DNA from: Psammoneis japonica
Taxonomy: Eukaryota
Reading direction: 5' to 3'
Assembly (NCBI GenBank): GCA_008632985.1
Contig: QPGO01000129.1
Coordinates: forward strand, 1 to 64,000
DNA length: 64,000 nucleotides
Within the stretch, counting starts at the first letter, position 1, and each line of letters starts with the position of its first letter. Below are positions 4,117-28,644 of the stretch, piece by piece. The translations under genes were made by a program, and so were the position numbers. A model generated the notes under the pieces. That model saw nothing but the letters and a program-made list of their open reading frames with translations. It was not told the origin of the DNA and did not search any database.

Positions 4117-5604
4117 TTACGCAGTCTTTGTTTTGCTGCCCATGCCATACAAACGGTGATCTCCCCACAGACGCGGGATAAAACGGAACAAAAAGAGTTC
4201 TCCAATGACCTCCAGAATGCTAATGAACGAAATACCAGCCCACAAGCCAAATTGGCCACCAATGGCTGCAAACAGCCCTGCCAGAGTCTGCACCTTGGTT
4301 TCTTCCGACACCTCCTCACAAATCGTATCGTAATTGATACGAAGGTGGACAACATTCTGCTGAAATTCTGCCAGCGAAACATTCAACCGCTCCGACAGCT
4401 GCAGAACAAACGGTGCCGATAACTTCAAAGTGTTGGACCGCGTTGTGTAGACTGTTTCGTGACATGGCGGTGGAAAGCAGTCGCAGCTTTCAAGAAATGC
4501 AGGAGCGTCTTGTTTTTCAAGCGTGGTGCACTCTTCATCTGCAGTGTTACAGTACGGCAGCGATTCGACTTGTTTCCGGTTGTCACCCAAGCCTCGGCAG
4601 CCACACTGTTGTTCTAAATACTGGAATTTACAAAGAGCACGGCATCGAGGCTGTGTGTACTCTGGAGCCTCGGATTTGCAAGTGGACCACGGGTGGTCTC
4701 GTTCTCGAAAGAACTCAGTTGATTTAATGGAGATCCAACTCAGTTCACCAGGCTTGGCAACAGCAAAAGGCATTTGGTCGGCAATCTGGATGCCAGGCTG
4801 TGTGATGAAAACGTAAACACCGAGCTCTTCTGTGATTGTCAAAAAATCTGAATTATCTAGGTAGCCACTAAACACCAGTCTGAAATCGTGTGGGTGAGTG
4901 ATAATGATCACCACAGAATAAACGGTAGCTCTCGTTATTCAAAATCTTGACATGACTTACCCACCAGCTGGGCCAGGGCTGTAAACTCTTTTAACAGTAG
5001 AGAAGGTCCAGCAGAGGCCTAAATGCGTTATTACAGGTTTCCATACATCAGTGTTGTTTCTCACAATTCCGTTGAATTTGGTGATTGTATTGCGAAAGAA
5101 AGCTTCAAAAGGCTGCGAGATGAGTTTAAGCTCTTTATCGTTTCGAGGAAACTGAATACCAGTAGATTCCATCCTTGACTGTTGGAATAAATTTGAGCTG
5201 CAAACAGTCACATGAGGAAACGGCAAACTATCTGGAGCTCTCCAATACACGGTGGTTTCGGTCTCATAGTTTTGGTACTCCTTGATTAGTTCGTAAACGA
5301 GAAAACACATGACACCAAAGAAGGCCAACAAAATGATCCACCAAAGCAGGCGCTTCCACCGAAGAAAATGCTGTCGATCTAACGCATAGGGGATACCATG
5401 AACGGATGTTCCTTCAGACCATGTTGAAACAACGTCAAGAGTCGTGGCGTTATTATTCGGATCCCTCTGGTAGTCGTCTTGTTTTCCTCCGTGCAAACTG
5501 CCCCCGGTATTATCTTTCGCCCCACTTGTTGTTGTTGCAGACTCCACAGGCGGCGGATCTTGCGTCTCAATCACAACGCCGGCTTCATTTCCATCCTCCG
5601 TCAT
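4117..5604 (-). CDS. DEG/ENaC (amiloride-sensitive sodium channel family) subunit
   Basis: N-terminal TSVHG motif, TM1, FPHVTVC, GLCWTF, Cys-rich thumb (CGC, CFPPPCHE), TM2 IGGQFGLWAGISFISILE; GT-AG intron 4880-4960 joins the two ORFs in frame. Confidence 0.92.
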
Positions 5605-5969
5605 GTTGTTTTAGTACTATACAGTGCGTTTCTTCTCTTGCTCTTTATTACGAACGCAGCGTCTTGAAACTTGAAACCATTGCCAGACTGCCAGATCAAG
5701 ATTGCGATGCGCTGTGTTCGCATTTTTTGTGGACTCGGGAATGAGAAGTGAGAAGTGATCGATTCGGGACTCGCTTGAGCGAACCGACGACGTACGGGCA
5801 TTAGCGATAGAGCGGACGCACGACAACAGACGATTTATCTCTGCGTGCACTCACGCAACCGCGCGCGCGGCCAGCCATCGATCTGTCGATCTTGCAGTCG
5901 CATCTTCATCACTCTTTTCTCAATAATTTTGATGAGGCGTTGAGCTGAAGGAAGAAGACTGTTGTCATA

Positions 5970-6830
5970 ATGAGAACTATCCGCTTGCTCTCTGTATCAT
6001 GCGCTCTAATTCTGCAGTGGGTGCATGTAGATGCGTTTGTTGTCAACCCCGGTTATGCCAAGCTCTTGAAGAAGCCTGCTCAAGCAACACCGACAATAGT
6101 AGACGCCTCTCTGAGAAGAAAAGTACTGGAACCGTCGATAACAACTACCGCTGAACGCAGTTCTGATTTTCAAGGTGGAGTTCTGGCGTCTGTTGCGCTT
6201 TTCAATTCAAGCCGCGTAGTTCGTTTGGCAGCAGTCGCATGGGTCCTTGGTGAATTTTTCAGCTGGATTGGCTTCTTTGAAGAAAATGCAACCGTCGCTG
6301 TTCTTGGTGGCAATCTGAAAGAAAAGATGGAAGACTTGCGTTGGGGTGCAGAAGAGTGGTGGGCTACGGCAAGGTGTGAAGGCGGGCTGTTAAATTCAAC
6401 CACATGGAGAGACAGCGGCATACAAGAAACAGTATCGTCCAAGCTATACAATTTATCCTTGAAACATCGATTTGCAGTTGGAGCCGGAGTTGGGTTGTTT
6501 TGTTCACAAGCAGCTTTGGGGGTCGCCAAGCGAGTGCTGAAGCTTGTTATTCTGCTTTATACAGTTTCCGAAGTTACGAATTTGATTGCTGAAGATCAGC
6601 CACAGCATAGCTATCGGAATACCACCGTATGGACCAAGGCGACAGAAACCGTAAATAATTCGCTTACAGGGCTTCGGTTGGCTGTAAGAAATGCCATTAT
6701 GAGCCCGAAAGGAGTGCTCGTCAAGGTCCAATCGTGGTTTCAAGAAACAAACGATGGACAGCCGCCAGTGCTCCCTCGTGACACTTTACGAGGTTTCGTT
6801 GTTGGGACAGTGACGAGTTTTTTATTCTAG
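5970..6830 (+). CDS. Hypothetical membrane protein with signal/plastid-type leader
   Basis: 286-aa ORF; signal peptide ending VDA-F; hydrophobic segments; normal dinucleotide composition. Confidence 0.7.
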   Translation: MRTIRLLSVSCALILQWVHVDAFVVNPGYAKLLKKPAQATPTIVDASLRRKVLEPSITTTAERSSDFQGGVLASVALFNSSRVVRLAAVAWVLGEFFSWIGFFEENATVAVLGGNLKEKMEDLRWGAEEWWATARCEGGLLNSTTWRDSGIQETVSSKLYNLSLKHRFAVGAGVGLFCSQAALGVAKRVLKLVILLYTVSEVTNLIAEDQPQHSYRNTTVWTKATETVNNSLTGLRLAVRNAIMSPKGVLVKVQSWFQETNDGQPPVLPRDTLRGFVVGTVTSFLF

Positions 6831-6874
6831 CGGGGCACAAGTACAAATTGGGATTGCGTTTAATGTTCATATAA

Positions 6875-8930
6875 TTAAGCGAGACTGGGACGCAGCAACA
6901 GCACCTCACCACCATCCACGGATGCTGCTACCTTGTCGCCATGTACTGCAATGCTACCGACATCTCCGCAGTCAGTTGGAACCTTGCCTCGGCTGTATAC
7001 GGGGTGTCGCATGGTGGCGTTGTTACTTGTTGTGGCGTTGGGATTGTGCCGAAACATGGAGAGTGAGTTACTTCCTTGACCTCCGCTAAGGACAAAGCAT
7101 GTTGTCGTCTCTCCAAGAGGAGTGAAGAAAGTGGGATGATGAATCTTTTTTTGTTTGCCAGTGTTGATTGGGACGTGGCCGTAGTAGGTAGAGAGAGGAA
7201 CAGCCAAATTGCGAATGTCCCATACTTTCATCTCGTTATCCAGACCAGCTGCGTATTGACAAAGAGAGGAAACGTATCATCTCATGTTAGTCCAGACACG
7301 CTGCGTCAGTCAATGGATCATGCACAAAAATCGTACCTGTAAGCAGAACGTGCTTGTTCTGCCGATCCCAAACGACAGAGTGCGGTTTGGAATGAGCATC
7401 TTCCAAAACAGCAACAGGGCGACTCGAGTCACCATTGCATTTGTAGTCATGAATAGCCACGAGTCCATCGTCAGAAGCCGATGCAAGGGTCGAAGTCGTG
7501 CTACTTTGGAATTGAACAGCAGATACCTTGGCAGAGTGAAAACCAGACCTCCACACAACGCCGCCGTTTTGAATGGATTCTAAAGACGACACGGCAACTG
7601 ACTTATCTTTGGAACCCGTACCAATCATGATATCATGGGCATTTTGAATATTTACATCCATGGCAAAGATACCGCTGCTATGAAGCTCCTTGCCGGTTCG
7701 ACACTCCAATTTCGGCATTCCAGTGGATACGGATACGGTAGAAAGATCCCAGAGACAAACATATCCGTCATTTGCTGCTGTCAACAAACGAGACGGCATC
7801 CTTAATGATGCATTGGAATTCATCGTGTTGGTTGGTAGAAAATGAGTGCTTGAAATCCATCGACCGCTATGTGCCTTCCAAGAGAGGATCGGGTCGACAA
7901 GTCTTTCCATACGCTCCGTTGGACTGTTTTCATCATCTTCGCTAGCTTGTGGTGCTTTGTGACAGTCCCATAGTGCAACAATTCCGGCTTTACCTCCACC
8001 TACCAACCACGAAGCCTGTTTGGATTTATCATTGTCAGAATCGACAAAGGGGTAAAACTGCATGGAATAAATCGCTCCGAGACCTTGCGGTGGACAAAGG
8101 CGATTTCTCATTAGAGATAAGGAAGTGACGCTCTTTTCCTCCGTAATATTGGAGGAACTTTCTTGCTGTTTCATGTTCTCGATATCATCATAAGTTCTCT
8201 TGTCGTCCAATTCATATTGAACCATAGGTGATACCTCATACTCTTCCTCGACTTGTTCTACGACTTCATCCTCAACAGCATCATCGTTGTTGCTACTTGT
8301 ATTGGCAGTCGACAAGCTTGACTCTTGCTTCAATCCACGAATTCTTCGGCTCGAACGACGCGGAGGTAGCGTCCGTTGCTTGTTTGTCTTGACCCGTGAA
8401 CGCCATGGCTTCTTTGTTTTGGGCGCAAATGTTTCCGTGTTTTGCAGCAATCCCAATTCAGCAAGACGCGCATTGTTTCGTTTAATATTTCTCAGACGAA
8501 GCAGCTCATACTCTGACAAGCCGTCTGGATTGTTTACGTTGCTTTCCCCTTGCACAATACTCTCACTGTCGCTGTCACTAGAGCTATCGCTGGCTTCTTC
8601 CTGACAAGTAGAAGAGGTTTCGTCAGGTACTTTTTCAGCGATAACATCGTTGTGTCCCTGCAATTCCTTAGGTGACGCAGAGACCTCAACAACGGTGCCG
8701 AGTTCATTTGTTTTTGACTTGGAGGCACCCTTTTCTGTCACTATGGTCGACTCATTGTTGCCATGCTCTGGAGAGACGGCACGAGTTGCGCTACTCGGTT
8801 GTTCTTCTGGCACCGTTACTTGCACATCAGCGTTCTTGGGTTTCTTGTTGCTCTTCCAAAAGTACTGCAACGAATGCTGTACAGGCACGCCTTTCTTATT
8901 GGATTTCTGAGTCGATCGCTTTAGTCCCAT
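6875..8930 (-). CDS. WD40-repeat protein, WDR76/Cmr1-like
   Basis: LSEYELLRLRNIKRNNARLAELGL motif typical of WDR76/Cmr1 plus several WD repeats; intron 7249-7336 gives LLTAGLDNEMKVWD; ATG at 8930 (MGLKRS) is the likely start. Confidence 0.82.
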
Positions 8931-9031
8931 TGTCCAGGAGTGAGATAGGAAGTACTGTGTTGTGTGCTCGATGCTTGAAGGCCAACAGCGGCACAACTGC
9001 GAATGCAATTGGCTGGCGCAATGCGATATAA

Positions 9032-9280
9032 CGCGCTCGATTTTTTTGGAAACTCGCATCGGCCATGGTGGTCGCGGATCGCTCCATTTGGGTCGTGCGA
9101 GTTTTTGTGAAATTGATTGGAGATGCGACAACCTTAGAGTCGGCCACTGTGTTGGTCTGTGAACTATGAAGAGAGTGTCTCTCGGCTCTGAGGCTTTGGT
9201 GTGCACAGAGAGAGTTGTGTGGAGCATCGCTGTTCGCTGTGCACAGCTGAAGCACTTTTCTCAGAGAAGGTCAGCAAAAT
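9032..9280 (+). repeat. Paralogous copy of the JmjC-locus upstream/5' module
   Basis: Matches 18923-19310, e.g. GGTCGCGGATCG...ATTTGGGTCGTGCGAG, TTTTGTGAAATTGATTGGAGAT and CTCAGAGAAGGTCAG vs CTCAGTGAAGGTTAG. Confidence 0.75.
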
Positions 9281-11479
9281 TCCAACATGGGAAGAGAAGC
9301 TCAGCAAGGTTTTGGGACTTCTCGGGTGAGCAAGTGTGCCCCACACAAACACTGCCAGAGCTTTGATCTCATGGGCTGGGGGTGGTGCAGAGGCAGTGAA
9401 AACATGTGCCTTCTCCCCCTCCGCAACTCTGACCATGGCAAAAATCAAAGCAACTTGTTCCCCCACTGAGTGATGATGTGTCCGCGCCATTGTGCCTTTG
9501 CTCCTGCAGGTTGCTGAAAGTGGCAATGAGCAGGACAAGGCAGGAAAAGAAAACTGCAGTGAGCAGAGGGTCACGGTGCAATGGGTTTTTTGCAAATGTG
9601 CTGTGTTTGCTGGGCTTTCTGATGTGGCAAAATTTAATGACAAGAACATTGTGATGAAATGACCATGCCAACTTGGTCAAGACTTGCAACAGCTGCACAT
9701 TGTTGTCATGTGATGGGCAATGTTTGTGGCTCTCCCAAGGTCAATGATCTTTGCCCCGCTCGGTTGTCTCTGCACTGTGCAGAGCTTCGAAGCTCAACAT
9801 TGATTGTGAAGCACACCGGCATTGCTCAGAGCCTCAACACAATGCACAGCTGACTTTTTGGTGGCTTCCAACAAGTTCTCCAATCCAATGTCATCAAAGT
9901 CATCAAGTTCCTTCTCTGTGCAGCTGAGCCCAACACCCAGAAGGGTGCTGTGTGCCAAAGAAACTGAGGAATGAACAGCTGCACAGTCTGGTTCTTGGAC
10001 AGTGCTCCACACACTTGTGCTTCATGCACCATCTCATGCACCCATGATGATTTTGTGGATCAAGGTGAAGTTTGATTAAAGCCAAGCTGCTGGGCTTGCA
10101 AGTTAAGAGTTGGATGTTGTCCGCAGAGTTGAACAATCCACAGTCCAACAGACATGTGCTTGACGCCATTTCCTCCACATCAATCATGCCACTTGCTTCC
10201 TCTCCTTCCCCACTGCCTCCGCTCAAGCCTCCATGGGTTTTTAAACCAATGTCTGCACAACTTGGAGGTGATCCATTTTTTGGTTGTTTCAAATTCCTCT
10301 TTGAAGGAGCTTTCATTGCAGAACTTGGATGAATTGTGGCACTGTGAAGCTTGCAGTCATCAAACCCCGCCATTGTTTTGATCCCTTGTAAAACAGATGG
10401 CAAAACCTGTGGTCCACTCAAAAAGGGTGAAACATCCTGGTGGGAATCCCCTGCTCCATTCTCATGCAGAAGAACCATCTCTTGCAAATGTGCAAGACAC
10501 TGCAACAGTGATTGTCATTGGCCATTTGTCCACACAGCTGGCATGCAGCATGAGGTGCATTTTTCTTTTCATTTGACCAACGACCAACCACTCAGCAGGG
10601 TCTTCTCATCTCTCATGTCTGGCGGCTGTCACCCATTTCTAGAAACCCAAATTTCCATTCAGGTTTTGTTTTGGAGGGAAACCTGTAGAGTTGGACAGCC
10701 TGGGCAGTGACCTTTCACCGAATCGCAGCACACTGACCTCAGGCAAAACACACTCGCTGCGAATTCCCACGCCCCAAACAAATGGATTCTGAACTTCAGC
10801 AATCATGTCTGGGTGAGAAAAAGTGTGCTGCAAAGTCTTGAGAAATCCAGCACTGGCAGAAAGGTCCAATTGTGCCCTCCCAAACATTTCCAGCAATCAT
10901 TCAAGATCATCCACAAAATCTTCTTCACATTTTGCTGCCTTCAACCCCACTTGCCTCAGAGCATGATGGAAATCAACATCCAAAACTTGATGGTTTTCTG
11001 GCTTCTTTCCTTCTGTTGCTGACAATTTGTCAAAGTCTTCCCACACTTCCAACCCCAATGGCATGCATGAATGTGCAGCCCATGCAGTTGACCCTTTGCC
11101 CCCTGTCCAGAGACTTCCATGTTTCCATGATGGAAGAGAGGCAGCGGCAGGTCAACATGCTCCCATGCCGATTTGTTTGCTGGCATGATTGTGGATGGCA
11201 CTGGTGACTGGTGCAGCAGGCTTTTGCACTGCAAGCAATGCCACAAGAACAGACACTGGCCTCCCCACTCACAGTGCACTGCATTTAATGAAGGACATTT
11301 CGGCCATTGTCATGTTGCATTGTTTGCAGGGTGGCTTCAGTGCAAAACATTTTCCAGAATTGAGCCATGAGTGTCAAAACATTGGCTTTTTTTCTTTTTG
11401 CAAAAACACATCAAAAAAAACAAGGGGATTTGCACAGGACATCAATCTGTCTCAATCAAGCCATGACTGACATCTTCCT

Positions 11480-12670
11480 CAGTCACGGATCCCATGATTT
11501 GGGTCATGCGCAAAGAACTGCTGCAATTTTTCTCAGGCACTCATGTGACAAAGCAAGCAAGGGCAGGACAACAGGGCAACACAAAGCATCCAACACAGAG
11601 AAGATGTGTGGCAGAGTTGTTCTTGTCATCACTGCTGCTGCCGTCATTGATGTGTTGAACATCCTTTCAGTGCAGGAGGCAGAAGTGGTCTGCCAGTTGA
11701 GTTGTGAGCTTGGGAGAGCATGTCATTGGTGTGGCAGTGTGGAATGGTTGAGCGTCATTGCAGGCAATTGCTGCACTTCTCTCAGTGAAGGTCAGCGAAA
11801 TCATGTCTCTGGTTGAAGCCTCTCTTTGCTGAAAGACAAGCAAAGGTGCAAGGAGTCACCACATCATTCCCATGGCGCTTTTCACAGATTCCCAGTCTGA
11901 GCATGATGGCCCTCTGCAGTGCAACTTTTGCATTTGAGCTTGGACTCCTTTTCATCTGAGCATGGCAGTGATGTGAAGAAGGAGGAAATTGAAAGCTGCA
12001 AAGTTCTTGTGGGTTGTGCTGGAATCACTCTTTGCAGGATCTGGCACAGCATGATGGCAGCAGTGCTGGCTTTGTGGCCCACAACTTTGTTCCAAAAAGG
12101 GAGCTGCGACAACTGATGAAGCTGGCTGCAGCACCAATGACAATGTCAAGATTGACAAGGACAAAATGGATTGGATGCAAACTTGCAGCATCAAAAAAGA
12201 GCATGTGCTTCACAAGGAAAGGCCAGACAGCAAACATTGTGATGCTGGTCATGACCCCATTCCTTGGCTTGGAAGAAACAAAGCACTGGCATCAAACCAG
12301 CCCAAATTGTGTTGGCTTCACCTTTTCAATGGAATCCACTCACCTGGCTGCAGCAGCAAATGTGACATTTTTTACCTCCATTTCAACCACACAAAGCTGG
12401 CGACATTGCTTTTTTTGAGCGTTGAACTCATTCACAATGATCTGGCTGACCTGCATGGAACAAAACACTGCTGCACTCTTGCAGAGCCTTTGTCATCACT
12501 GAAAAAGTTGAAAGTGATGGATGAGTTGGAGAGAGAGTCTTGCAAAACCATCTCCAAAGCTGACTTTCAAGCTTGGCACAAATTCACCTGCAAGCCTGTG
12601 GTTCTCGCAGTGTGTGACTTGACATGGCCCACTTCACAGCATTGGATGCCACAACAATTGTTCCAAGTGC
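11480..12670 (+). pseudogene. Hypermutated paralog of the 5' half of the JmjC gene at 19232-21242
   Basis: Colinear with ~18960-20220: EIESCKVLVGCAGIT vs EIEHCEVLVGCAGIT, PFLGLEETKHWHQTSPNCVGFTF vs PFLGLDEAKYWCQTNPDCVGFTF, LKVMDELERESCKTISKADF vs LKAMDKLERVSCESLSKADF. Confidence 0.93.
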
Positions 12671-12680
12671 TGCAAGTTGT

Positions 12681-12915
12681 CGCGCTCAATTTTTTTTGAA
12701 AATTCGCAGCATTGTGGTGGTCGTGGATCATGCCATGTGTGTCGTGTGAGACAAACCTTTGCACAAAGTGAGATGATGCTGCTGTGCGGGTGTCACGAAG
12801 CATCCTCTGAGATGCTGGAAATTGTTGTTGTCATTGCTGCTGCCACAGTTGACACATTTTCAATGCAACAGGTTGAAAGTTGCAAGCTTGAAATCCCCTC
12901 TCATCTTTGGCTGAA
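12681..12915 (+). repeat. Further mutated copy of the JmjC-locus upstream module
   Basis: Aligns with ~18923-19150 (CGCGCTC-polyT-GAAAATTCGCA; GTTGACACATTT..CAGGTTGAAAGT..AAGCTTGA vs GTTGATACATTT..CAGATTGAAAGT..AAGCTTGA). Confidence 0.75.
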
Positions 12916-15900
12916 GGTGCCACAAGAACACCTTCAACAAGGAGGCAAGCTGGAGGACAAGGCCGTGTTGATCGGCAAGCTGCTGGGCCAGTGTGAAGAA
13001 GAAAGCTGTGCACAGAAATGCAACATTTCGTGCACACTTGGACCTCCATTTTGAAAAACAAAACAAAAGCCAAAGAGGAGCTCATTGTGCTGGTTGTTGA
13101 GTGGGCAGCAGATGTTTTGTGAGCCTGCAGGGTTGATTGCAGCTGGCCTTGGCTGTTGTTTGCCGCACGCTGTTGTGTGACTCTGCACATGGCTGCATGT
13201 GGTTTTGTGCAGAAATGTGTGAGTGGGGTCATCTTTTTGTTTCTCTTTTCAAGGATGGGGCAAGCTCCAAAAAACAAGAAATGGGTGTGCACAGAGAGCT
13301 TTTTTTGCACTTAAAAAAAACAATTTCTTGAAGTCACACTCAGCACAACAAACTCCTTCTCTTCAACTCTGGTGGTTTCCACCAAAATCACAGTCATGCA
13401 AGTGGACACAAAAAATGCAATGTTCCATGCATGCCTCCACTCTTTGACATTGGAAAAATCAAAAGTTTGAGGTGTTTGTTGTGCCAAACATGAAGCAGGC
13501 TGCTCAACATGATGTTGCACCCACACTTGTGTCACCCAGAGCTGGAGCTGGCCAAAGGAAGCTTGAGCCTGTGCCCGGCTCTGGGGCAGATGCACTCCAG
13601 CCTGCAGGAGCAGGGGTTCATGCAATGCTGGGCCCACACAATTCTGCAAGCAATCTCAGAGGCCCAGTTGTCAAGCAATGAATGTGCCAACAATCTCCAA
13701 CAAGAGGAAGGCAATCATTTTGCAAATGCATGAACTCCTCAGCACTTGGAAAAGGGTGTCATTTCCAGCTTGCCCAGGTGTCTTCTTCAGACATTGAAGA
13801 CAATGCCTGGCACCCATCTTTGTTTTCATGACATGTGCCAGCCCTGGTGGGTGGCACTCTGGTGCTGTGTGACGTGGGCCCATCATGGAATTCTGTGTGG
13901 GCTGCAAGCTCCACAGTTTGCACACTGGACAATGAACACATTCATCTTTGACATTGAGTGAATGGCTGAGTTTGCAATGCAACTGCGCACCCCTTGGCAC
14001 TCAAAGTTTTGAAAATCCATGTGCCCCAGCCACACAACTCTGCAGATGTCAAAGAATTGCTTTGTGCAAAAAATGACAAAAGTTGTCAAATGGATTGCCC
14101 AATGACTGCACTGCCAAATGGCACAAGATGCCGCCAAAGTCACACAGAAATGAGTGTGCATGTGTGCAGCACACATGCAGCACATGATGCAACAAAAAAC
14201 CTCAATGCCACAGGTGAGTCCCAGCAGTGTGTGTGAGCTGGAGCAAATCTCACAAGTGGACAAAACAAAAAGCCTTTGGCTTTGCAAAGCAGGGAGCACA
14301 AAACAATTTTGAAGGAGATTGTGTGCAGAAATGTGCGCCACCAAAAAACATTCAAGTGGGGCAGCATGGCAGCATGATGAGGTTCACCCACCTGGAGCCA
14401 GCTGGAGCATGCCTTGATTGGGTGCAAGTGTGTGATGCAGAAGATTGCTCCATTCAAGGTGGTCCTTGGCAGCAAAGCTCAGAGTCTTGTGCCAACTTCC
14501 AGGTGCCTGCACTGCTTTAACTTGAACAGCATGCCATGCAGCTGTGGCAGTGATGACATGCCTGATGTGATTGCCAGCACACAGCAGCAACATCAGAGTG
14601 TGCATTGTGGTGATTGAGGCTGCCTGTCTTGCAGCAATTCATGCCATTGGGACTGCCCCCCCCCCTCCCATGAGGAAAACATGCACAAGCATTTTAACCC
14701 ACAAAAAAGTTTTTTGTGGAATGAATTTAATGTGCGCACTCTTCCTGCCACAGCTTGTTTCTTGTCTCCAGTGTTGCACCACAATCTGCACACATTGCAC
14801 AGCCAGGAGTTGCTTCCTGTTCAAGGAGTTTGCTGCAACTGCAGCTGCAACATCTCATTGTTCTCCCTGCACATCATGTGCAGAGTGTCAATTCAATGGC
14901 TCAAGGTGCATCAATTTTCAACTCACAATGTCATCACAAGAGGTTCTTCTTTTTGTGGCATGTGTGGGGTCCAAGTCTTCTGCTGTTCTCACACTGCCTT
15001 CTTTGTTCAGCGAGCATCCTTGCAGCCACGTTGAACTTTCCTCCCACCAAAAGGTGCACTGGTTCCTCCAAAGCCTCATGTGGTCTCTTTGGATGCATGT
15101 TCCTGCCCAGCAAAATGTGCTTCCTCAGCCCGTCTCTTTCCATGGACTCCCCCACGTCACATGCCAAAATGGCCCTTGAGCCATCATCTGTGCCAGGCAC
15201 ACTGCATCATCTTCTTGCACCTCAGTGTCCTCATGCATCCTTGCACCACACCACTTTGCTGCATTCTTGACAATCTTTGGGTTGATGAAGCAGGAAAGCA
15301 GCATTGCAGTGGCCTTGCATGTTGGAGATTTCCCATTTTCACTTGTGTGATTGTGTTTTTCACAATGTGCACCCTTCTGCTTGTGAAGGATGCAACACAC
15401 AACTGTTTCAGCAACAAACCATGCACCACAAAGGTCATGTGCTTGGTCATCAATCAAGGCTGGGAGACTGACATGCTTCAAAAAATGGAGACAAGGCTTG
15501 CCTGTTGGTGGGTCATCAAGGCCATCACCACCAGCAACAAGCTTGTGCATGAACTCAACCATGACCTTGATGTTGTGGTGGAGGCTGTGATGCTTCTGCC
15601 TCTCCTTCCCACCTCACCAGGTGTCAATGAGAACTCCAGAGCTTTCTCTGACTCTCTGTGTTGAAGAACAAATCCACCCTTTGCTGAAAAACAGGATCTC
15701 TTCATCTCCCCAACCACAAGCATTGACGCAAGAAACCACATGGCGCCAGGACAGCCAAGAGATTTTCTTGCAATGTTGTTGGTGCAGATGACTTCCACAA
15801 CATGTGGAACATGATGAAGCTTTGGCTTGGCTTGCAGCAAAGGAAGGGAAGCACTGTGAGCTCTGGAGAGGGGGGCAGCTTGTTCACTCCCCATGAGCCG

Positions 15901-17779
15901 CTTCTTTTAGAGGCACACACACATTGCAACCATGTTTTTGAGCTCAGCTCCATGCCAAAATCACCAGCAAAATGTTTCACACCATCACAGCCAACATTCT
16001 TGATGAAGACACATGAGGGATCGGGGTTGACCCCATTGGCTGACAGCCAAAATGGGGGGGCAAAGTCATTCAATGCCATGGCTGGTTGTCAACTGACTGG
16101 CAACAATGTGCAGAATGCACGAGAGTTGCAGCATTGCACACTCTGACTTTCCATTGTTTGAGGAGAGAGTGCACACTGTTGTGCAGAAAATTGTGCATGT
16201 AAAAAATGCTGAAAAAGCCACAGCCAACTGTGCTGTGCAAACCTGAAAAGTGTGAAGGACCAAGCAAAGGCTCGTTGTGGTGACTTGGGCATGCAAGGGC
16301 AGTGTGGTGCTGTGGGAGCACAGTGGACTGCACGCACACAAGGGCACATGTGTGTGGGAAAGACAAAGTTGAAACCAAGCTCAATTGAAGAGCACAAGCA
16401 CCAGAAAAACTAAATTGTGTGACATGAAAAAGGCAAAAATCCAAACCAAACTGAGTGGTGCATGCATTTGGCCAAAGCTTGTGTTGGGAAAGCTGACTCT
16501 GACATGAGCTGAAACATGTTGTGAAGCAAACGCACTCCCGCTGAATGCTGTCACTGACACTTTGTGCACTTGGGCAGCCAAAGGTTTTGGCGAGTGCTCT
16601 GATGGGTCAAAAAAAGAGAAAAGTGCAGGCAAGGCATTTGTGCAGCAGCAACTTGCCCCCCGGGGCTGGCAGATGTGATGCTGAGCAGATTGCCCAGCAA
16701 AAACTGGCCCAAAAAGGAGAGTTGGGAGCCTCAAAAGGGAGCTGTCTTGAGAGGCGGAGTGCAGCAGGATCAACTCCCAACTCTTCCAGCCCCCTGTGCC
16801 AGCAGTGCTGTGAGATTTGCGTGGACATGCACGTGTGCAACAACACATGTGTTGAGTCAAGCACATTTGTGTGTGCCACAGCCTGTGTGGTTTCCTCAAG
16901 TTTTTCCTCCTTCTGCCATGGGCACTTGTGTGCAACATGTGCAAATTTCAGCAAAATTGCACACAAACAAAAATTGCAGCCAAAGAGCATGGTGCAAACT
17001 GACGAGTGATCAGATCCAATCTGAAAAGTCTCTGAAGAAAAATGGCTGTCAAACAATGCATGCCGATCTGCCTGCTGCTGGTGCCAGTGCTCTCAGATTT
17101 GACAACTGCACACAACATTTGTGTTGAAAATTTCTTGTTGCTCACAAGACAGTGTTCATTGAACTTGTGAAATGTTTGACATGCAAACCAACACACTGAC
17201 ATGGGATTGAGACATTTTAGACAGAAGTGCCTGAAGCTCATTGAACACATTGTTTGGACATCTTTTTCCAGCAGCTTTCAAGTGTTGTCATTCGGACACA
17301 TTTTCTGATGTCAAGTGCATTTTGAGCAGTGCCTCTTGGCACCACCATAATTTGACACAGCATTGGGACATCTGTTTTTGCAAACAAGATTTGTGACACA
17401 AGTGCCCAGGGCCTGGCACAAAGATTCTTGATGGAAAGTCTGCATGAGAGTGCCCCAGTCATGCTGGCTGGTCCGATTTGCAATCGCGCTGAATTGTTGT
17501 GTTGTTTCCATGTTGTTGGGCTTTCATCCTGCCAGTCCTCATAAAATGCATTTCATTGGGAGGAAGCTGAGCATGAGAAGAAATTCATGTGCAAGAGAGT
17601 TGTGCTGTTGCTTGCTTTTGCTCTCTGTGGGGCAGGCGACATCAGAGGTGTCAGCGGAGTTCAAACCAAAGGAACCCACATCCTCCAATGCAAGCAAGAA
17701 TGCAAGAGCAAACTGTTGCGGGGATGGTTGTCTTTTGTTGGTTGGTGCTTGTTCTCACAATTTCTTCTTTCTTTTGTGC

Positions 17780-18860
17780 TTTCACCTTTCCATCAAAGAA
17801 TGTGTTGAATGAAGAAGTTCATGACACTGAAGAAACCCCCGAGAGGGAGGAAGCTGATGGCAAGCTTGTTCATGAGATGCCACAGTGTGCTGATTGCCAG
17901 TTTTGCTTTCTGACAGCTCCCATGCATCACAAGTGCATTTCAGGATCCTTGTCCTCCCAAGGGAGAATGTTGCAGAGCACACACACACCCCCCACCCAAA
18001 TGTGCCATCATCAGTGAAAAGGATTGTGAAGGCAAAGGAGGGCGCCGCACTGGAGACAGGATAAAATGCCGGGCCAACAACTGCCCAAAAGCTTTTGGAG
18101 CCTGCTGTGACCCCCATCCAGATGGACAATGCTTCCTCTTGAGGCCAGCTTTTTGCACATTGAAGAAAGGTGTGTCCAGGATCCACGACAAGCAACGGCG
18201 GTCAATGTTCACTCACATCACTCACACCTGCTGTTCAGCACAATGCGGCTGGTGCAAAATGATCTGTGAAAAGCAAAGAGATGCTCTGAGTGCTTCTGTG
18301 TTCATCAGCAGCCAGGAAGCACCTGCCTGCCCCCTTTCCCTGCCACCCCCGATCTGCGAGCTGGCATTTTCTTGGTGCTGACCTGGCATTGAAAAGAGGC
18401 CACAGCTGCAACAGCATTGCAGCAGAAATGCTGGCCAGGAATGCCATTTCAGTTGTGTCAACACTGGACATTGTGACATTGGGGCTCTTGATGACTGATG
18501 CTTTGGCTGCCTCTGCTCTGCCACAAGCGGCTCTCTCACTTCCTTCATCCTTGAAAGCTGTTCAAGGGAGCATGGCTCCTCCACTGCTTCGAGAAAGCAA
18601 GTTTCCAGAGTCAAACTCAAGTGGTTCTTTGAACCATTGCTGCAAGATGGGTGTCAACCCACAACAGAACAAACACTTTGACCCTGCCAGGGGCTGCAAA
18701 ACTTGCCAGCTAGTGGAAGCTGCCTGTGCCCTGTCGTCGAGCTTCTTCTTGTTCATGAGACTTTTCTCGCTGTTTTTCTCTGCGAAGAAGAAAGTGTCAT
18801 CTGCAGGATCCACAGATGACACTGAGCTGTCACTGGCAATGGCGATCAGTCCCTGCCGGT
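17780..18860 (-). pseudogene. Probable eroded gene divergent from JmjC
   Basis: ORFs 18562-18822, 18235-18471 and 17782-18195 read as one frame broken only by TGA codons (consistent with CGA->TGA); family not recognised. Confidence 0.4.
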
Positions 18861-19231
18861 AGATCGATGTGTAGATGCAATGAATGCGATGATTGGCACA
18901 TCGGCACCCCCATCAGAAATTTCGCGCTCTTTTTCTTTTGCGAATTCGCATCGTCATGGTCGCGGATCGCGGACGATTTGAGTCGTGCGAGAGAAACAGC
19001 CGCATCTTTTCTCTCGCGCTTCGCGTGAAGCTCTAGAGAGCTTGGCGACGCGAAGTATCCGCCCAGTTGTCGTCGTTGCTGATTCCGTCGTCGTTGATAC
19101 ATTTAACGCAGCAGATTGAAAGTAAGAAGCTTGAGACCCCCCTTATCCTTCTTTTGTGAAATTGATTGGAGATACAACATCCTTAAAGTATATAGGAGAA
19201 GTCGTCGGATTGAATTGTGAACTGAAGAGAA

Positions 19232-21242
19232 ATGGCGGTGGCTGCAAAGTGTTGTCGGGCATCATTATGGGCGATTGCTATGCTTCTCTCAGTGAAGGTT
19301 AGAAAAATAACCTCCCTGATTGAAGCCCCTGCACTGAAAGACAAACACAGGCGTAAGGAATCACCGCATCATTCCCGTGGTGTTTCTTCGCAGAAACCCG
19401 GGCTGAGCACGACGGCCCTCCGCGATGCAACTTTTCGCTTGAGCTTGGACTCCTTTCCGAGCGTGGCGGTGATATGAAGGACGAAATTGAGCACTGCGAA
19501 GTTCTCGTGGGTTGCGCTGGAATCACTTTTTACCGGAATCGGCAGCACGACGACGACGATGCTAGCTTTATGGTTCACAACTTTATTCCGAAGGGAATTG
19601 CTACAACGGACGAAGCTGATTGCAGTGCCAACGACGATATCAAGATTGACAACGACGAACAGGATTGGAGACGAATTTATCGTAGCAAAAAGAATTTGTG
19701 CTACATAAGGGAAGGCTGGACAGCAAACATCACGGTGCCGACATACAATCCCATTCCTCGGTTTAGACGAAGCGAAATACTGGTGTCAAACCAATCCGGA
19801 TTGCGTTGGCTTTACCTTTCCAATAGAATCAACGCGCTTGGCTGTAGCAGAAAATATGACATTCTTCACCTCCATTTCAACCATACGTCGTGACGACGGT
19901 AGCTTGAACCAATGGCGAAGCTACATTTCCAACAATCCCGACAGAGCCGGCAACATTGTTTTTCAAAACATCAAACTCATTCACGACGAACTGACCGACC
20001 CGTACAGAACGAAACACTGCTGCACTCGTACAGAGCCTTGCCATCGCTAAAGGAGTTGAAAGCGATGGACAAGTTGGAGAGAGTGTCTTGCGAAAGCCTC
20101 TCCAAAGCTGACTTTCGAGCTCGGTACGAATCAACCCGCCAACCCGTGATCCTCGTGGGGTGCGACTCGACATGGCCCGCTTCACATAACTGGACGCCGC
20201 AACAATTATTCAAACGATTTCGTAATGAAACCAACTTTGTTGGTAGATTTCACAAGAGACTCGGCTATGCTTACAGTATCGAAACCTTGGGTTGGATTGC
20301 AGACGCCATGGCATCGGGTGAAGAATACTACGTTTTTGATAACCTATTATCCGATCCCAGCATTTTCTCGCTTCGCAATGATTTTGAATCAGAACCGGGT
20401 CCGATTGAAGACATGTATCTCAAGCTTGAGGATTTTCCTCCTGGGTATGGCCCGTCACGTTGGTTTACCTTTGGAGGTCCCGGCTCTGGGCTGGTAAGTA
20501 CAGACACAAATGATACAAGTAACAACGGCTTGGTGGGACGAATTGTTGCCGAATCGTATCCAACGAAGCATTCCGTTTTGTTTGTTGACAGCCGCCTCAC
20601 TCTGACCCGATTGCGAGTGATACGTGGAACTACTTGGCTTATGGTCAAAAGTGGTGGGTGCTGTATCCGCTGGAAGAGGAAGACGACCACGACAACTTGC
20701 ATTGCGATGACCGTTGCTCGGCGTACATGTGGAATACAGCGCATTGGTTTGCAACTGTGGGAATCAATGCCGCAAGGAATGAATACGATGCCACAGATGA
20801 TAAAAAGAGACCCATCCATGTCTTACAGAAACCGGGTGAAATCTTGTACATTCCAAATGGTATGGTTCACGCCGAAATGAATCTTGCCCATTCCACAGCC
20901 GTGGCTGCGCTCTTTGCCTCGACACAAAATTTGGAGGCTGTTTGGGGCACTATTGTTGGTCTAGGAGCTGATAAACATTGGAGACGTGTATACTATGGAG
21001 GCATTTTGAACAAGGAACAACGCAGGGTCGTTCGCGACGTCAGCTACGAGTGGCCGCCAGTCGCTGGAGACATGTACTATTTTGACGGCCCGTTTCTTGA
21101 CCCCGCAAAAAGATTAGGAAAAGAAGCAGATGAATACCGGGAATATGATGATGATGATGAAATGTGGGAGGACGACGACGAAATCTGGGACGAAGACATA
21201 GACGATGACGACGCATGGGAGGAGTACTGGGATATAGTTTGA
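19232..21242 (+). CDS. JmjC-domain 2OG oxygenase (JMJD6/JMJD8-like) with N-terminal Cys-containing repeats; frameshifted as assembled
   Basis: RWFTFGGPGSGL|PPHSDP (HxD), YGQKWWVLYP, LQKPGEILYIPNGMVHAEMNL; intron 20494-20591; acidic tail; frameshifts near 19745 and 20040; start codon uncertain. Confidence 0.85.
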
Positions 21243-21629
21243 AATGCGGAGCCACCACTGGATGATTGCGTACTGCTAGGGATTCTCCTTAGATGGTAAG
21301 GCGTCTCTAGAGAGAGAGAGGCTAGAATCCTAGTATTCTGTTTTTACGTTTGTTGAAGCTAGAGTCTTTCGGAGTGGTGATAATTTTCTTTGGCTTCTTC
21401 AAAGGAGCGATGCTCGAAGCATGTTTTGGTTTCGCGCCATAATTTCGAAAAATTGACTGCGGTACAATGAACAACACAAATTCGTATGTAGAATTCGTAC
21501 GAGTTGCTACACAGAAATCCGAGTATCATTTTTGTCAGCATCACACTCCTGTTGTTGCAAATAACGCGTTGTCGAGATCTAAGTTGTTTGATTCTTCGTC
21601 TCTTATGCCATTTTGGCAAAGCAGACACA

Positions 21630-24600
21630 ATGCCCAGTACAGAATCCATATCTAAAGAAGAAGCCGAAGCAGGAAAGGCCTATCGGTGCTCCTGTGAATA
21701 AAGATCCGAAAGCAACGACTTCAACTGCGACAACAGCTCGTCCTAATGCTGTACCGGTAGCTACGAAACCTACTCATAATGCATTGGAGTACCAAGCAAG
21801 AAAACCGAGGCCATAAACCCTTCAAAACGACCTCTTAAGCCAGTCTCCAAGAACAATCAGTCCAAAGCTTCAAACCCACGCAAGTCGTTCAAGGCGCAAT
21901 TGAAACAAGAAATCAAACAGATGAAGCGAGCCAAGGAGTTGGAGAAGCAACGCAAGATTCAGCAGGAACTAGATCGTAAGCGTGCTATCGAAAAGGAAAA
22001 GCGGGACAAAGAATTGAAGATACTTTTGGAACAACACGAAAGAGAGAGACTCGAGAAACAGAGGCAACGAGAGCTAATCGAAAAAGAAAAGGAAAAACAG
22101 CGACTTGAAAAAGAAAAGGAGAAACAGCTTAAATATCAACAGCATATGCAAGCTCAGTGGCTGGCAGCTCAGCAGGAGCAGCAGCCGACTATGCCTTGGC
22201 AAGGCAACGGCTCGTATGGTATGCCGTATGGTGCGATACCCTATGGTGCTCCGATCCACCGGGCGCCGCTTGCCCCCTACCCACACAATCCAACGGTTCA
22301 TCCAAGCGGAGCACCTTTTCTTCCGAATCAATCTATATCACCACTGACAGTTACGGACACTTCACAAGGTTATGCCAGAGCTGCGGCCAACGCGACTGAA
22401 CCTGTTACCCCGACGGTGTTCTCCACACAGCCAAACCCCAAGACGCCGAGCACGAGTTCAATCGGCACGATGTCAAGCGCTGGTGAAGAGAAAGCGGTTT
22501 CGATTCAAAAGTCTGTATTATCCACTAATTCACCAAGTGAAGATGGCCGAGTTACGACGAAAATGGAAGCACAGTCAGAGTCTTCGACCCAGCCGCTTAT
22601 GGATTCGAGGACCACCGCATCATTGACAAACACGCCCGGAACAAAAATCTCGGCTGACCCAGCTGCAGCTACAGATACTCCAACCGCATCTACAGTAGTT
22701 GTGGTGACTCCATTGACCACCTTTTCTCGAGACAACTTGCCTTGCACTCTGCCTAGTGCTCACTGCCACAGCATAAAAGGCCGGCTGCCGTGTACTTCTC
22801 CATCTTCGGCGATAGTCCCTGTCCCCCGCTACAACGATGAGGTGGTTTCAAGAGGTGATTCGAGAAACAATGAACCATCACATCATAGGGCGGCAACTTT
22901 GCCAACTTCGATTGACAAAGTGGCGATTTCAGCTCCTCAATCCGCTGCGAGCCAGGCACTGCTACGGCCTATGTTATCACAAGCCCCCGTTCCTCAACGT
23001 GAATCTCAGGAACAGCGCGCATTCGGACTGAAGCATATGGTCTCGGGTCCCTTTTCTTATGGAACATTACCTCCGCCACACTTCCACCCACCGTGGGGGC
23101 ATTTTCCAGGCGTGCCACCTTTGCCATTTAGTAGTAGTGTCCTTGGCGCATATCCTCATCCTGCTGGAGCAATGGGTGGCCCTGTTGCCCCGATGCACCC
23201 GATTGCATATCCGACGGCGCCTCCCCAAACGAAAAGACAGCCTAAACCAAAACCCCAGGTACTTCATGCCGATCCAATGTCACATCCTTCACCATATGCC
23301 GATAGCCATGTACTTGTTGCGGAACCGATCATCATCACCAAGGCTCGTGGAGGCTCTTTTGGGGTCACAGTCAAGTACGAGATGCAAAGCACGCTGGTGG
23401 AGCCTCCTCCTACGGTTCTTACGCCAAACTCGGCTTCAACTGTCCAAGTAGCGCCCGTGGTACCAAAACGAGAGGTTGATGCACCCTCACAAGCTAGTAC
23501 CGCCGCGCCTATCGTGAAGCCTGTAATCAATGAGACTGCATCGGCACCCAAAAGTTCTCAATCTGAGGTGGAAAAGAAACAGGTCGTCGACGCTGATCGT
23601 AATGCATCCATGGATATCCAAACTGAGAAAAATTTGTCGAACCTGTCCACGAGCGTCCCTCCGAAAAAACAACGCCGACCTCGTCGTACGCGGGTTTTCT
23701 TTGGTACAATGGGTGTTGCGAATGTATCGAAGCAATACGCTGGAAAAGATACCATTGATCCAAAGGCAAGGTTGCAACCTGGTGATATAATTTTGAAGAT
23801 CAACGGACAAAGTACGGCTGGGTTGCTTTTTTCCGAAGCGTGTACGCTCTTTGCCACGGACGTTGCGCCTTCAGCACCTGCACATACTGATCAGCAGGAG
23901 ATTAAGTGCGCTGTTGAGGTCGCAAGGCTCGTACGGAAGCCAACACAAGGTGCCGTTCCCGGCACAATAGTCAACCAAGGAGTCCAGAATGGTTTTGGTA
24001 CTCTGCTCCAGCCAACAAAGGATGAGCCTGTCGCTCCACCGATTCCCAAGATACCGTTGTTCATAGACAAAGGTAGAACTAAAGTGTTGTCTGGGGAGTT
24101 TTCAAACCCGGAAATGACAGCATTGATCAAAGCGGTAGTCGCTTCTCTTGGTCGTGCCGACCGTGTCTTGGGTTTCGAATCGTCGTTGCAGAGTTTTGAC
24201 CATCAGCGCAGGCAATACTCAGCGTTGGATCGACGCGACCTTGACACTCTGAAGCTACGATGGTCTCACGAGACCTACTATGCCACTTCGACAGCGGCAT
24301 CCGTTGCACGTGACTACTGGATGAGCGAGTGGAAAAAGGAGCTGTCTCGATCCAACTCCGATGATGCGGGTGTGCCATTTCAGTTCTTGTCAGACGCACA
24401 GCGGTGTAGTATGCGCGCCTTGCCGAGACCTGCAAACGGATGCAAGTGCAGAAGCTCCAATCACCAACACGTACACGACCTAAATTGTGTGCTATATCGC
24501 AACATTCGGCACTTGAGAAAGCCTGTTAGGTTGACTACCGAATCATCATCTCCAGGCGTCAAGAAAAGCCGCTTACCAAAGAATTTGAATGCTGTTGAAA

Positions 24601-28348: not shown

Positions 28349-28644
28349 GGTGCATGGATCTATTATCTGCTTCTTTCACCGCTCATCCCTCATCCACATC
28401 TCGTTTCGTCTGAGAGGAGCTGTTATCAGGTTTAGGCGTGCATTCCATCCACTAAGTCGCGATGATGTGCGTACGTCCGTCATCCGCATCGCTGCGAACG
28501 GCACCCCGCGGCGCACGCGGCACGCGGCACCCCCCGAACCCCGAAATCATCGACCATGACACAAAATGAGATATCACCGACCGCAGATCATCATGCGCTT
28601 GGACTACAAAGCAAAGAGTTGAGCATAGCTATCCATCAAAAACT

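Follow-up and report, generated by a model that had tools for sequence, protein, structure and literature searches.

The window analysed here is a stretch of 64,000 nucleotides from the diatom Psammoneis japonica (contig QPGO01000129.1), in which all protein relatives that carry a name come from diatoms. It contains five domains, none with an assigned strand, that have lost almost all of their TA dinucleotides. The first (1–503), at the left end of the window and adjoining an assembly gap (504–935), holds no TA where 20.3 are expected and one CG against 28.3. The second (9170–18830) is an intergenic block with a gene on each side, depleted of TA (21 against 389.3) and CG (97 against 542.9) and enriched in TG and CA. 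Another large TA-depleted domain (30840–38930) has 32 TA against 326.1 and 229 CG against 454.7, and its middle retains CG (observed/expected ratio, o/e, 0.60–0.99 in 33001–36500) despite the TA loss. The remaining two, recognised by composition, lie at 50170–53280 (14 TA against 125.4; 46 CG against 174.8) and at 54850–60170 (19 against 214.4; 73 against 299.0); in the right third of the latter (58350–60170) the plus strand is purine-rich, with a G–C skew of +0.24 to +0.50, and TG about equals CA. The expected counts were derived from the rest of the window.

Together the domains, all of which the first-pass annotation had placed correctly, occupy 26,687 of the 64,000 bases (41.7%), and their pooled TA frequency is 3.2/kb (o/e 0.05) versus 40.3/kb (o/e 0.59) outside. 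The figure of about 60 TA/kb taken earlier as normal is approached only in 1001–1500 (58/kb), while the average outside the domains is 40/kb. The accompanying scarcity of CG and excess of TG and CA are confirmed for the pool, with the exception of the CG-retaining stretch 33000–36500: CG falls to 16.7/kb versus 56.2/kb in the rest of the window, CA rises to 110.6/kb versus 74.2/kb and TG to 110.1/kb versus 72.7/kb, so that CA and TG together reach 220.7/kb versus 146.9/kb. The gain of TG and CA (73.8/kb) thus nearly equals the loss of TA and CG (76.6/kb), G+C is unchanged at about 0.48 inside and outside, and AA is not depleted (84.0/kb versus 78.3/kb). As a control, none of 1009 windows of 500 bp from 283 kb of eukaryote contigs around G-beta relatives had a TA o/e below 0.1.

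The domains had been described as coinciding with transposable element remnants and dead duplicates, and repeats had been named as the target. The duplicate part holds for one host gene copy (11679–12663), which is thereby a target of TA loss; the transposon part is not confirmed, since a Pfam search of 187 open reading frames (ORFs) from the domains gave no hit at the cut-off and no transposable element, viral or reverse transcriptase domain, and repeats are at most a putative target. A domain ORF of 332 amino acids had no relatives among 1.84 billion representatives. The Pfam search for a deaminase encoded in the window found none; the gene at 27113–28375 is a 2OG-Fe(II) oxygenase that matches an AlkB-like Pfam family and not TET/JBP.

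The direction of change is most readily seen in the pair formed by the gene at 19192–20211 (plus strand), of normal composition and just outside the domain 9170–18830, and the degenerate copy of its 5' part at 11679–12663 (plus strand), recognised by nucleotide identity and mutated in place. The parent region contains ORFs at 19709–20050 and 19903–20880, and 19903–20877 matched no Pfam family. The two copies are 71.6% identical over 974 nt, and recoding to purines and pyrimidines raises identity to 90–95%, about 94% for the pair; the 900 aligned nucleotides (19254–20211 with 11747–12663) differ by 166 transitions and 37 transversions. With direction set by composition and by the parent's intact ORF, rather than by an outgroup, the 29 TA of the parent have become TG (15), CA (10) or other dinucleotides (4) in the copy and none is retained, while its 63 CG have become TG (28), CA (26) or others (8) and one is retained. 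The domain TA loss is therefore mutational, by TA to TG or TA to CA, as had been proposed. It also exceeds other A-to-G change: adenine became guanine in 27 of 61 cases after T (0.44), and in 24 of 151 after A, 18 of 128 after C and 17 of 136 after G (0.12–0.16; pooled 59 of 415). Likewise, C became T in 55 of 128 cases before G and in 17 of 129, 12 of 94 and 8 of 104 before the other bases (pooled 37 of 327), and neither AA nor C in contexts other than CG showed excess change. A short direct repeat (9102–9140 and 19151–19189, plus strand; 89.5% over 38 nt, 97.4% after recoding) brackets the domain 9170–18830. A counterpart of normal composition exists for about 1 kb of the 26.7 kb of domains, and in-place mutation of the remainder is suggested by analogy with this pair together with the mass balance.

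A tandem duplication on the plus strand within the domain 30840–38930 (32904–36295; halves 32904–34225 and 34972–36295) served as a clock. Its halves are 94.1% identical, or 99.1% after recoding, and differ by 66 transitions and 6 transversions, with 12 double switches between TG and CA, 7 transitions at 652 non-YR sites, 27 sites with CG in one half and TG or CA in the other, and 48 shared CG. The rough rates estimated from this pair are about 220 times background for TA and about 23 times for CG. The loss of TA is thus distinct from CpG decay and about ten-fold faster, which agrees with the second process postulated earlier, and the same is indicated by the loss of TA where CG remains in 33000–36500 and by the nesting of a CG-poor core within the TA-poor zone at seven of eight edges, where TA loss reaches 70–820 bp further. 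The process is also locally restricted, as the first-pass annotation had held. The TA edges are sharp, with a switch within tens of bases: those of 9170–18830 lie near 9030–9170 and 18860–19030, and at the left edge of 30840–38930 the last TA stands at 30834 and the next at 31399. DNA immediately outside the domains has 21–69 TA/kb.

Both strands are affected, and changes are not clustered. TG and CA number 1123 and 1096 in 9170–18830 and 866 and 868, 343 and 364, and 549 and 567 in the other three large domains (2881 and 2895 altogether), and a runs test gave z from −0.57 to +0.89 over the four, with −0.57 in 9170–18830. Among the 86 surviving TA the contexts TTAA (25) and CTAA (18) prevail, while ATAT, ATAC, ATAG, GTAT and CTAT are absent. 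A per-strand multiplicative model fits these counts (chi2 12.9, about 12 degrees of freedom) with survival of 0.81 for TAA, 0.31 for TAG, 0.13 for TAC and 0.04 for TAT, giving a preference of T-A-T over T-A-C over T-A-G and, far behind, T-A-A; TTAA survives because T-A-A is largely spared. Of the TA with a T on their 3' side in the paralog pair, nine of nine were converted to TG, whereas other TA gave 6 TG and 10 CA (Fisher p 0.0028). CA and TG come out correctly from a simple conversion model, which however accounts for just half of the GC rise (observed 75.5, context model 67.3) and misses the AT fall (observed 55.1, model 63.3); therefore either the ancestral composition was different or a further process is acting.

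That a real, regionally targeted mutation process at TpA operates here is highly probable. According to the full explanation, which on balance we find credible, the blocks are DNA between genes of the diatom nuclear genome, lacking recognisable protein domains, that has been altered in place by two distinct processes of context-specific transition. The faster of them turns TpA into TpG or CpA, so that A:T is replaced by G:C at one or the other pair of the dinucleotide; it hits the strands independently in many separate events and stops sharply at the edges of flanking genes. The slower is decay of CpG to TpG or CpA, as expected of 5-methylcytosine deamination, with its core slightly inside the TA-depleted zone. 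The chemistry favoured is that a putative chromatin-targeted deaminase of TadA/ADAT2 type converts DNA adenine to hypoxanthine, an idea that follows the proposal for the same signature in Bigelowiella natans; we give adenine deamination itself slightly less than an even chance. The effect may be an irreversible inactivation of unwanted DNA, because the changes abolish TATA-like motifs, two of the three stop codons and a large number of codons besides.

The signature is the same as the TpA hypermutation of B. natans, an unrelated alga, the only organism for which it was previously reported. In mutation-accumulation lines of that species 230 of 231 mutations were A to G or T to C, all at TpA and within two integrated viral regions (Mettrop et al., bioRxiv 10.64898/2026.01.13.699255). 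Mutations of this kind thus appear anew in living cultures of that alga, though only some lines show them. The same preprint describes 124 TpA-poor, CpA+TpG-rich clusters in its genome, identifies the mutating regions as giant-virus and virophage insertions with TpA still at 3.3% and 9.2%, and proposes an ADAT2 homologue as the agent (bioRxiv 10.64898/2026.01.13.699255). Shared between the two systems, as far as the preprint's main text describes them, are transitions at TpA to TpG or CpA according to strand (25 of 29 TA here), discrete regions with a rate orders of magnitude above the rest (about 220-fold here, a rough estimate), and TpA-poor, CpA+TpG-rich windows in which the predicted genes are mostly unannotated. 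In contrast, the host is a diatom here and a chlorarachniophyte (Rhizaria) there. The regions reported for B. natans are far from saturated because of the TpA that they still hold, whereas the present blocks have reached saturation (0.3% TpA), contain a duplicate of a host gene and, by Pfam, show no viral or transposon protein. The words "CpG", "trinucleotide" and "flank" do not occur in the main text of the preprint, and thus neither the nested CpG decay nor the T-A-[T>C>G>>A] preference is described there. The earlier statement that no description was known is thus overtaken by the 2026 report on B. natans, but it holds for diatoms, for which a literature search for TpA to TpG/CpA hypermutation found nothing.

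Repeat-induced point mutation (RIP) of ascomycete fungi is similar in that dense context-specific transitions ruin unwanted DNA, leave neighbouring genes intact and produce a dinucleotide anomaly. However, RIP converts CpA to TpA, which raises TA and lowers G+C, and it mutates both duplicate copies, whereas the parent at 19192–20211 is intact here (29 TA and 63 CG in 900 nt); the fall of TA, the unchanged G+C and this parent copy speak against fungal RIP. As the intact paralog is only 6.5 kb distant, the process is not homology-triggered in the manner of RIP. The changes of one RIP event are strand-coordinated, unlike the unclustered changes found here. RIP also takes place before meiosis and depends on a RID-type cytosine methyltransferase. 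Decay of CpG by 5-methylcytosine deamination, a process of repeats that carry CpG methylation, is matched by the nearly equal yield of TG and CA from CG, but it covers the CG half only and cannot remove TA. AID/polymerase-eta and APOBEC are comparable as locally targeted, enzyme-driven mutators in defence or diversification. Their contexts are WRC or TC for C and WA for A, and they differ from the present process, which leaves AA and C outside CG without excess change.

The tRNA adenosine deaminases are a natural enzyme class able to deaminate both A and C in nuclear DNA, as far as the available reports describe. Their natural tRNA target, A34, follows U33 and thus stands in a U-A context, and we know of no chromatin targeting for these enzymes. 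DNA deamination by Trypanosoma ADAT2 is cited in the B. natans preprint (bioRxiv 10.64898/2026.01.13.699255). Amphioxus ADAT2, acting on single-stranded hairpins, is reported to use GAA as the context of A and TCG as that of C (PMC10354150), and an adenine context of GAA, not TA, counts against the deaminase proposal.

The strongest alternative, still an unlikely one, keeps the same targeted process with other chemistry: a silencing-associated thymine modification at TpA (for instance 5-hydroxymethyl- or 5-formyl-uracil, the product of a TET/JBP-type dioxygenase) would mispair with G at replication and give T to C, read as TA to CA or TA to TG by strand. Sequence cannot separate attack on the adenine from attack on the thymine of an A:T pair, and the context effect is equally expressible as the 5' neighbour of T. 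The hydroxymethyluracil of dinoflagellates is concentrated at TpA, and thymines that have been oxidised do mispair with G; on the other side, we know of no modified thymine of that type in diatoms, and the window offers no pointer to it, its oxygenase being AlkB-like.

Less probable again is a repair by-product, in which T:G mismatches from 5-methylcytosine deamination would provoke error-prone patch resynthesis with G misinserted opposite T at TpA, akin to the polymerase-eta phase of antibody hypermutation. TA and CG are lost mostly in the same places, and since remaining CG decays at about 23 times background, lesions would be common in the domains. Yet the polymerase-eta hotspot WA comprises AA along with TA, while A-to-G change is much less frequent after A than after T and AA is undepleted; TA loss is also about ten-fold faster and wider than CG loss. 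In B. natans, as reported, the TpA signature came with a single mutation of another kind in 231, so a CpG partner is unnecessary there.

It is improbable that the blocks are foreign or mobile DNA that lacked TA and CG from the outset, as elements might after evolving to escape a TA-directed defence, with no local mutation. About 25.7 of the 26.7 kb lack a counterpart of normal composition, and word depth in 13004–18339 is raised (77–2004 versus about 50–70 in the flanks). Of the read contigs aligned to the region, 128 of 274 are less than 90% alike, which together with the depth shows that related copies exist elsewhere; the short loose ends of these contigs are mostly TA-free too. Against this, the host gene fragment was converted in place, the tandem pair went on changing at YR steps after duplication, and the gain of TG and CA balances the loss of TA and CG. 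The 2004-fold peak sits on a low-complexity CA/TG-rich stretch and therefore need not indicate a high-copy element.

A genome-wide bias without targeting, visible only in unselected DNA, would suit domains without recognisable coding sequence, but it seems slightly less probable still: the adjoining non-coding DNA at four edges is TA-rich (50.5, 64.4, 51.3 and 69.4 TA/kb), the change takes place within tens of bases, and genes, with third positions presumably near-neutral, remain at a TA o/e of about 0.59. An artefact of sequencing or assembly ranks lower again. Methylated motifs cause systematic miscalls on some long-read platforms, but strand-specific miscalls would be expected to give mixed calls and not clean TG or CA, and the paralog pair also differs by indels and transversions of the sort that a copy of some age would show. 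Read run X1 contains 0.84 of the sampled words of 14000–23999, and a read-derived k-mer contig of 3960 nt (word depth 35.5), spanning a domain edge and the mutated copy, equals 8953–12912 with no other letters and no gaps; the depletion is therefore not an assembly artefact, and the reads test that the first-pass annotation had named as a possible refutation leaves its claim standing where the comparison was made. X1 stems from a single sample whose reads may also have gone into the assembly, so this check does not depend on the assembler, though it may share the library. Least probable is that the RNA of an element was edited in the ADAR manner and then fixed in DNA through reverse transcription: ADAR favours an A preceded by U (bioRxiv 10.64898/2026.01.13.699255, discussion), but change on a single strand would be expected, and the equal, unclustered TG and CA contradict RNA hyperediting of this type, while the host gene fragment and both tandem-repeat halves were altered in place and no reverse transcriptase remnant was found in the domain ORFs.

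For genome annotation, the loss of TAA and TAG leaves each of the six frames with long spurious ORFs, the ORF of 332 codons without relatives among them, and long ORFs in TA-depleted DNA call for caution. A TA o/e below 0.1 with an excess of TG and CA could serve as a cheap marker of long-silenced DNA in any assembly, and as TA is lost before CG, the two together provide a relative clock. Base-editing work would likewise take an interest in a natural adenine deaminase that acts on DNA in a defined context.

Before the 2026 preprint on one chlorarachniophyte, no natural process was known that targets genomic DNA for A-to-G mutation. A far-reaching and rather doubtful reading is that diatoms, and perhaps the stramenopile-rhizarian common ancestor, possess a chromatin-guided base-editing defence whose substrate for deamination is adenine at T-A-[not A]. 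It would work on either strand of whatever DNA is placed in silent chromatin, and duplicates of host genes would not be exempt. At about 200 times background and ten times the rate of CpG decay, such a defence would act earliest and contribute most to irreversible silencing; a more daring variant would place one dual A/C deaminase behind the losses of both TA and W-C-G. A saturated form in a diatom would mean that the process is not peculiar to a single alga and not restricted to viral insertions, and that it occurs in a group with transformable model species, in which the enzyme could be sought.

The five TA-depleted domains (1-503, 9170-18830, 30840-38930, 50170-53280 and 54850-60170) were surveyed by a 500-bp dinucleotide profile and pooled counts over the window, and their description in the first-pass annotation as poor in TA and CG, rich in TG and CA and extending over about 40% of the window was borne out, since they total 26,687 bases, or 41.7%. 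TA occurs at 3.2 per kb (observed/expected, o/e, 0.05) in the domains versus 40.3 per kb (o/e 0.59) in the remaining 36,881 bases, the latter average correcting the earlier figure of about 60 per kb, which had been given for a CPSF2 sample. CG amounts to 16.7 per kb inside versus 56.2 outside, CA to 110.6 versus 74.2, and TG to 110.1 versus 72.7, so that the gain of CA and TG (73.8 per kb) approximates the loss of TA and CG (76.6 per kb), with a G+C content of about 0.48 inside and outside. In the main domain, 9170-18830, 21 TA were observed against 389 expected. None of 1009 control windows, each 500 bp long and taken from 80 eukaryote contigs, had a TA o/e below 0.1, and one was below 0.2; these contigs, metagenome loci around relatives of the G-beta gene of the window, are short and gene-proximal and therefore serve as a rarity control only, being uninformative on the repeats of other diatoms. 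The TA-free stretch 1-503 adjoins an assembly gap of 432 N (504-935). At 58350-60170 purines strongly predominate on the plus strand (G-C skew from +0.24 to +0.50, A-T skew reaching +0.45), and the segment is diffusely self-similar after purine/pyrimidine recoding, the skew not being caused by an imbalance of TG and CA.

Self-comparison matched 11752-12666, in the main domain, to 19259-20214, a segment of normal composition a short way beyond the domain, the two being 71.6% identical, and purine/pyrimidine recoding lifted the match to 93-95% and extended it to 11679-12663 and 19192-20211, which means that the differences are nearly all transitions (166, with 37 transversions, at 900 aligned positions). 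The copy at 19192-20211 is the presumed parent because it lies in open reading frames and resembles the rest of the window in composition; the three-way alignment of 8990-9175, 12640-12830 and 19035-19225 shows a mosaic of homologous stretches, too short for the direction of changes to be read. The 29 TA of the normal copy correspond in the domain copy to TG (15), CA (10) or other steps (4), with none kept, and its 63 CG to TG (28), CA (26) or other steps (8), with one kept. Counted per base pair, A to G changes affected 27/61 sites after T versus 24/151 after A, 18/128 after C and 17/136 after G, and C to T changes 55/128 sites before G versus 17/129, 12/94 and 8/104 in the other contexts. 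Thus, the excess of TA to TG/CA over other A to G transitions, on which the earlier proposal of a "reverse RIP" depended, was found in this pair, and it is specific to TA and CG. Short pieces of the sequence bordering the domain on its left (9005-9140) are found again within it (12654-12750) and just beyond its right end (19151-19189), a pattern that suggests an origin of the block by local duplication, with later filling and degradation. A contig of X2, one of two sequencing runs compared with the window, skips 98 nt at 20492-20591 (depth 107.5); the skip is bounded by GT..AG and shows that the parent gene has an intron there, so that X2 looks like cDNA, though labelled "DNA?". X2 covers parts of 5000-8977 and 19077-21442, while most of 9002-19006 is without cover, which is not read as silence.

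The speeds of TA and CG loss can be compared in a tandem duplication inside another domain, 30840-38930 (32904-34225 and 34972-36295), whose halves are 94.1% identical, or 99.1% after recoding. They are separated by 66 transitions and 6 transversions, and only 7 transitions lie in the 652 sites outside pyrimidine-purine steps. At 12 sites TG in one half faces CA in the other, as expected where a TA that existed when the duplication arose was later resolved separately in the two halves; 5 TA are half-resolved and 7 shared, the shared ones mostly in resistant contexts. A simple model gives about 29 susceptible TA at duplication with about 91% lost per copy, and the loss of CG is about 22% per copy (27 differing versus 48 shared sites); the rates over background transitions, rough values from the same simple model, are about 220-fold for TA and about 23-fold for CG. 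At 7 of 8 edges the TA-poor zone reaches 70-820 bp beyond the CG-poor core, and in 33000-36500 (3.5 kb, inside 30840-38930) TA is gone and CG is kept at o/e 0.6-1.0. This retention, together with the difference in rates, upholds the postulated second process beside CpG decay.

TG and CA are equally frequent in each domain counted (1123/1096, 866/868, 343/364 and 549/567) and follow each other along the DNA in random order (runs-test z from -0.57 to +0.89), so that the changes must have hit the two strands alike in numerous separate events, and not in strand-coordinated bursts or by way of an RNA copy. The 86 TA surviving in the domains include 25 in TTAA, the rarest context outside the domains, and 18 in CTAA, with none in ATAT, ATAC, ATAG, GTAT or CTAT. 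All 16 contexts are fitted (chi-square 12.9, about 12 df) by a per-strand model in which survival of A depends on the base 3' to it, the modelled survival being 0.81 for TAA, 0.31 for TAG, 0.13 for TAC and 0.04 for TAT. Likewise, in the paralog pair 9/9 TA preceding a T were changed to TG, versus 6 TG and 10 CA at the others (Fisher p 0.0028). CG loss is greater where the preceding base is A or T than where it is C or G. GC and AT dinucleotides (75.5 and 55.1 per kb in the domains versus 60.4 and 63.7 elsewhere) deviate beyond TA and CG conversion alone: a simulation of normal sequence with these rates reproduces GA, TC and part of GC, leaving GC too low (67.3) and AT too high (63.3).

According to these data the TpA process is real, regionally confined and context-specific, converting A:T to G:C beside a slower CpG decay. 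The favoured chemistry would be adenine deamination by a chromatin-directed enzyme of the TadA/ADAT2 type; amphioxus ADAT2, in the available part of its description, deaminates both A and C in DNA, in the contexts GAA and TCG, respectively, on single-stranded hairpins (PMC10354150). A mutagenic thymine modification at TpA may operate instead of adenine deamination, and the sequence alone is compatible with it. Error-prone patch repair fits less well as the source of TpA loss, because AA is unaffected and TA loss outpaces CG loss.

It is very improbable that the TA-free blocks are an artefact of sequencing or assembly. Reads had been proposed as the test of base-calling errors, and a 3960-nt contig of X1, the other run (word depth 35.5), which runs across the edge of the domain and through the mutated copy of the gene, aligns to 8953-12912 with 0 differing letters and 0 gaps, although X1 is one sample and may be the data behind the assembly itself. 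X1 also contains 0.84 of the sampled 31-mers from 14000-23999, half of that span being within the domain, and covers 30/30 depth bins over 5000-24999; it differs from the window at scattered flank positions too and thus does not simply repeat the assembly. Modified bases miscalled on one strand would give mixed calls, unlike the clean TG or CA seen. At 15234-15237 the window has TGCA versus CATG in an X1 contig (depth 43), i.e., a pair of neighbouring TG/CA double switches; separate resolution of two ancestral TA or CG steps in two alleles or copies would produce this pattern. X1 word depth at 9002-13003 is 36-48 versus 52-74 in the flanks, a reduction that could stem from alleles diverging more in a hypermutable block or from biased coverage.

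A genome-wide bias exposed only in unselected DNA is very improbable, given the 21-69 TA per kb of the DNA directly outside the blocks. The edges are sharp, with TA density changing within tens of bases (last TA at 30834, next at 31399), and the proposed locus restriction of TA loss therefore holds. The main domain occupies the interval between the parent gene and, on its left, a WD40 gene (ORF 7290-9260, minus strand). Since the parent copy (about 1 kb), 6.5 kb off, is intact and untouched, the trigger is not homology, as it is in RIP; position in a silent block would more likely be the criterion for attack.

The earlier claims of repeat targeting and of coincidence with TE remnants and dead duplicates were retained only in part: a dead gene duplicate lies in one block and the tandem duplication in a second, but Pfam revealed no transposon or viral domain in 187 ORFs of the domains (37 of at least 150 aa and 150 of the 166 of 70-149 aa, the other 16 lying across domain edges or in 59313-60219). 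The two sub-threshold matches, DUF5439 (17.7 bits, cut-off 27) and DUF1179 (18.4 bits, cut-off 25), are at chance level. No tandem or dispersed repeats were found inside 9000-19000, and recoded self-comparison of the window with short seeds gave mostly chance matches of 73-80%, only the reported pairs standing out. Among the X1 contigs on 13000-18300, 128/274 are less than 90% alike, at word depths of 77-2004 versus about 50-70 in the flanks, the highest peak falling on a low-complexity CA/TG stretch. Because TAA and TAG are lost, long ORFs fill all six frames of the domains (the 37 of at least 150 aa within 26.7 kb), which makes TA-free DNA a trap for gene predictors; the longest, of 332 aa (55929-56924), had 0 relatives among 1.84 billion representatives in an exhaustive search and is best interpreted as a spurious ORF resulting from this loss.

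Long single-exon ORFs in the window are consistent with a diatom; the G-beta ORF (60544-61716) has best matches of at most 60% identity, and the fully named organisms among the 120 matches listed are all diatoms (Fragilaria, Fistulifera, Seminavis, Cylindrotheca and Epithemia). Bigelowiella is not the source, since a protein nearly identical to those of the window is absent from the records. An ORF of the AlkB-like 2OG-Fe(II) oxygenase family (27113-28375, minus strand; PF13532, E 2.7e-27) stands between two TA-free blocks, probably by coincidence, and a match to the amiloride-sensitive sodium channel family (4120-4938, minus strand; PF00858, E 1.6e-30) is unexpected for a diatom.

The first-pass annotation knew of no description of such a process in diatoms, and literature search found no report of TpA loss in this group; the same signature is, however, present in a 2026 preprint on Bigelowiella natans (Mettrop et al., bioRxiv 10.64898/2026.01.13.699255), available in part. 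In its mutation-accumulation lines 231/302 nuclear mutations fell in integrated giant-virus and virophage regions, and 230 of these 231 were A to G or T to C, all at TpA, at a rate of about 6e-7 per site per generation; with just one mutation of another type, the TpA process does not require CpG decay. The genome contains 124 clusters of windows poor in TpA and rich in CpA and TpG, and the deaminase proposed is an ADAT2 homologue; the available main text is without mention of CpG, diatoms, trinucleotides or flanking bases. Thus, as far as that source extends, TpA hypermutation of a kind described once before is now found in a diatom, where its added features are saturation, the targeting of a host duplicate, nested CpG loss and a preference among trinucleotides.
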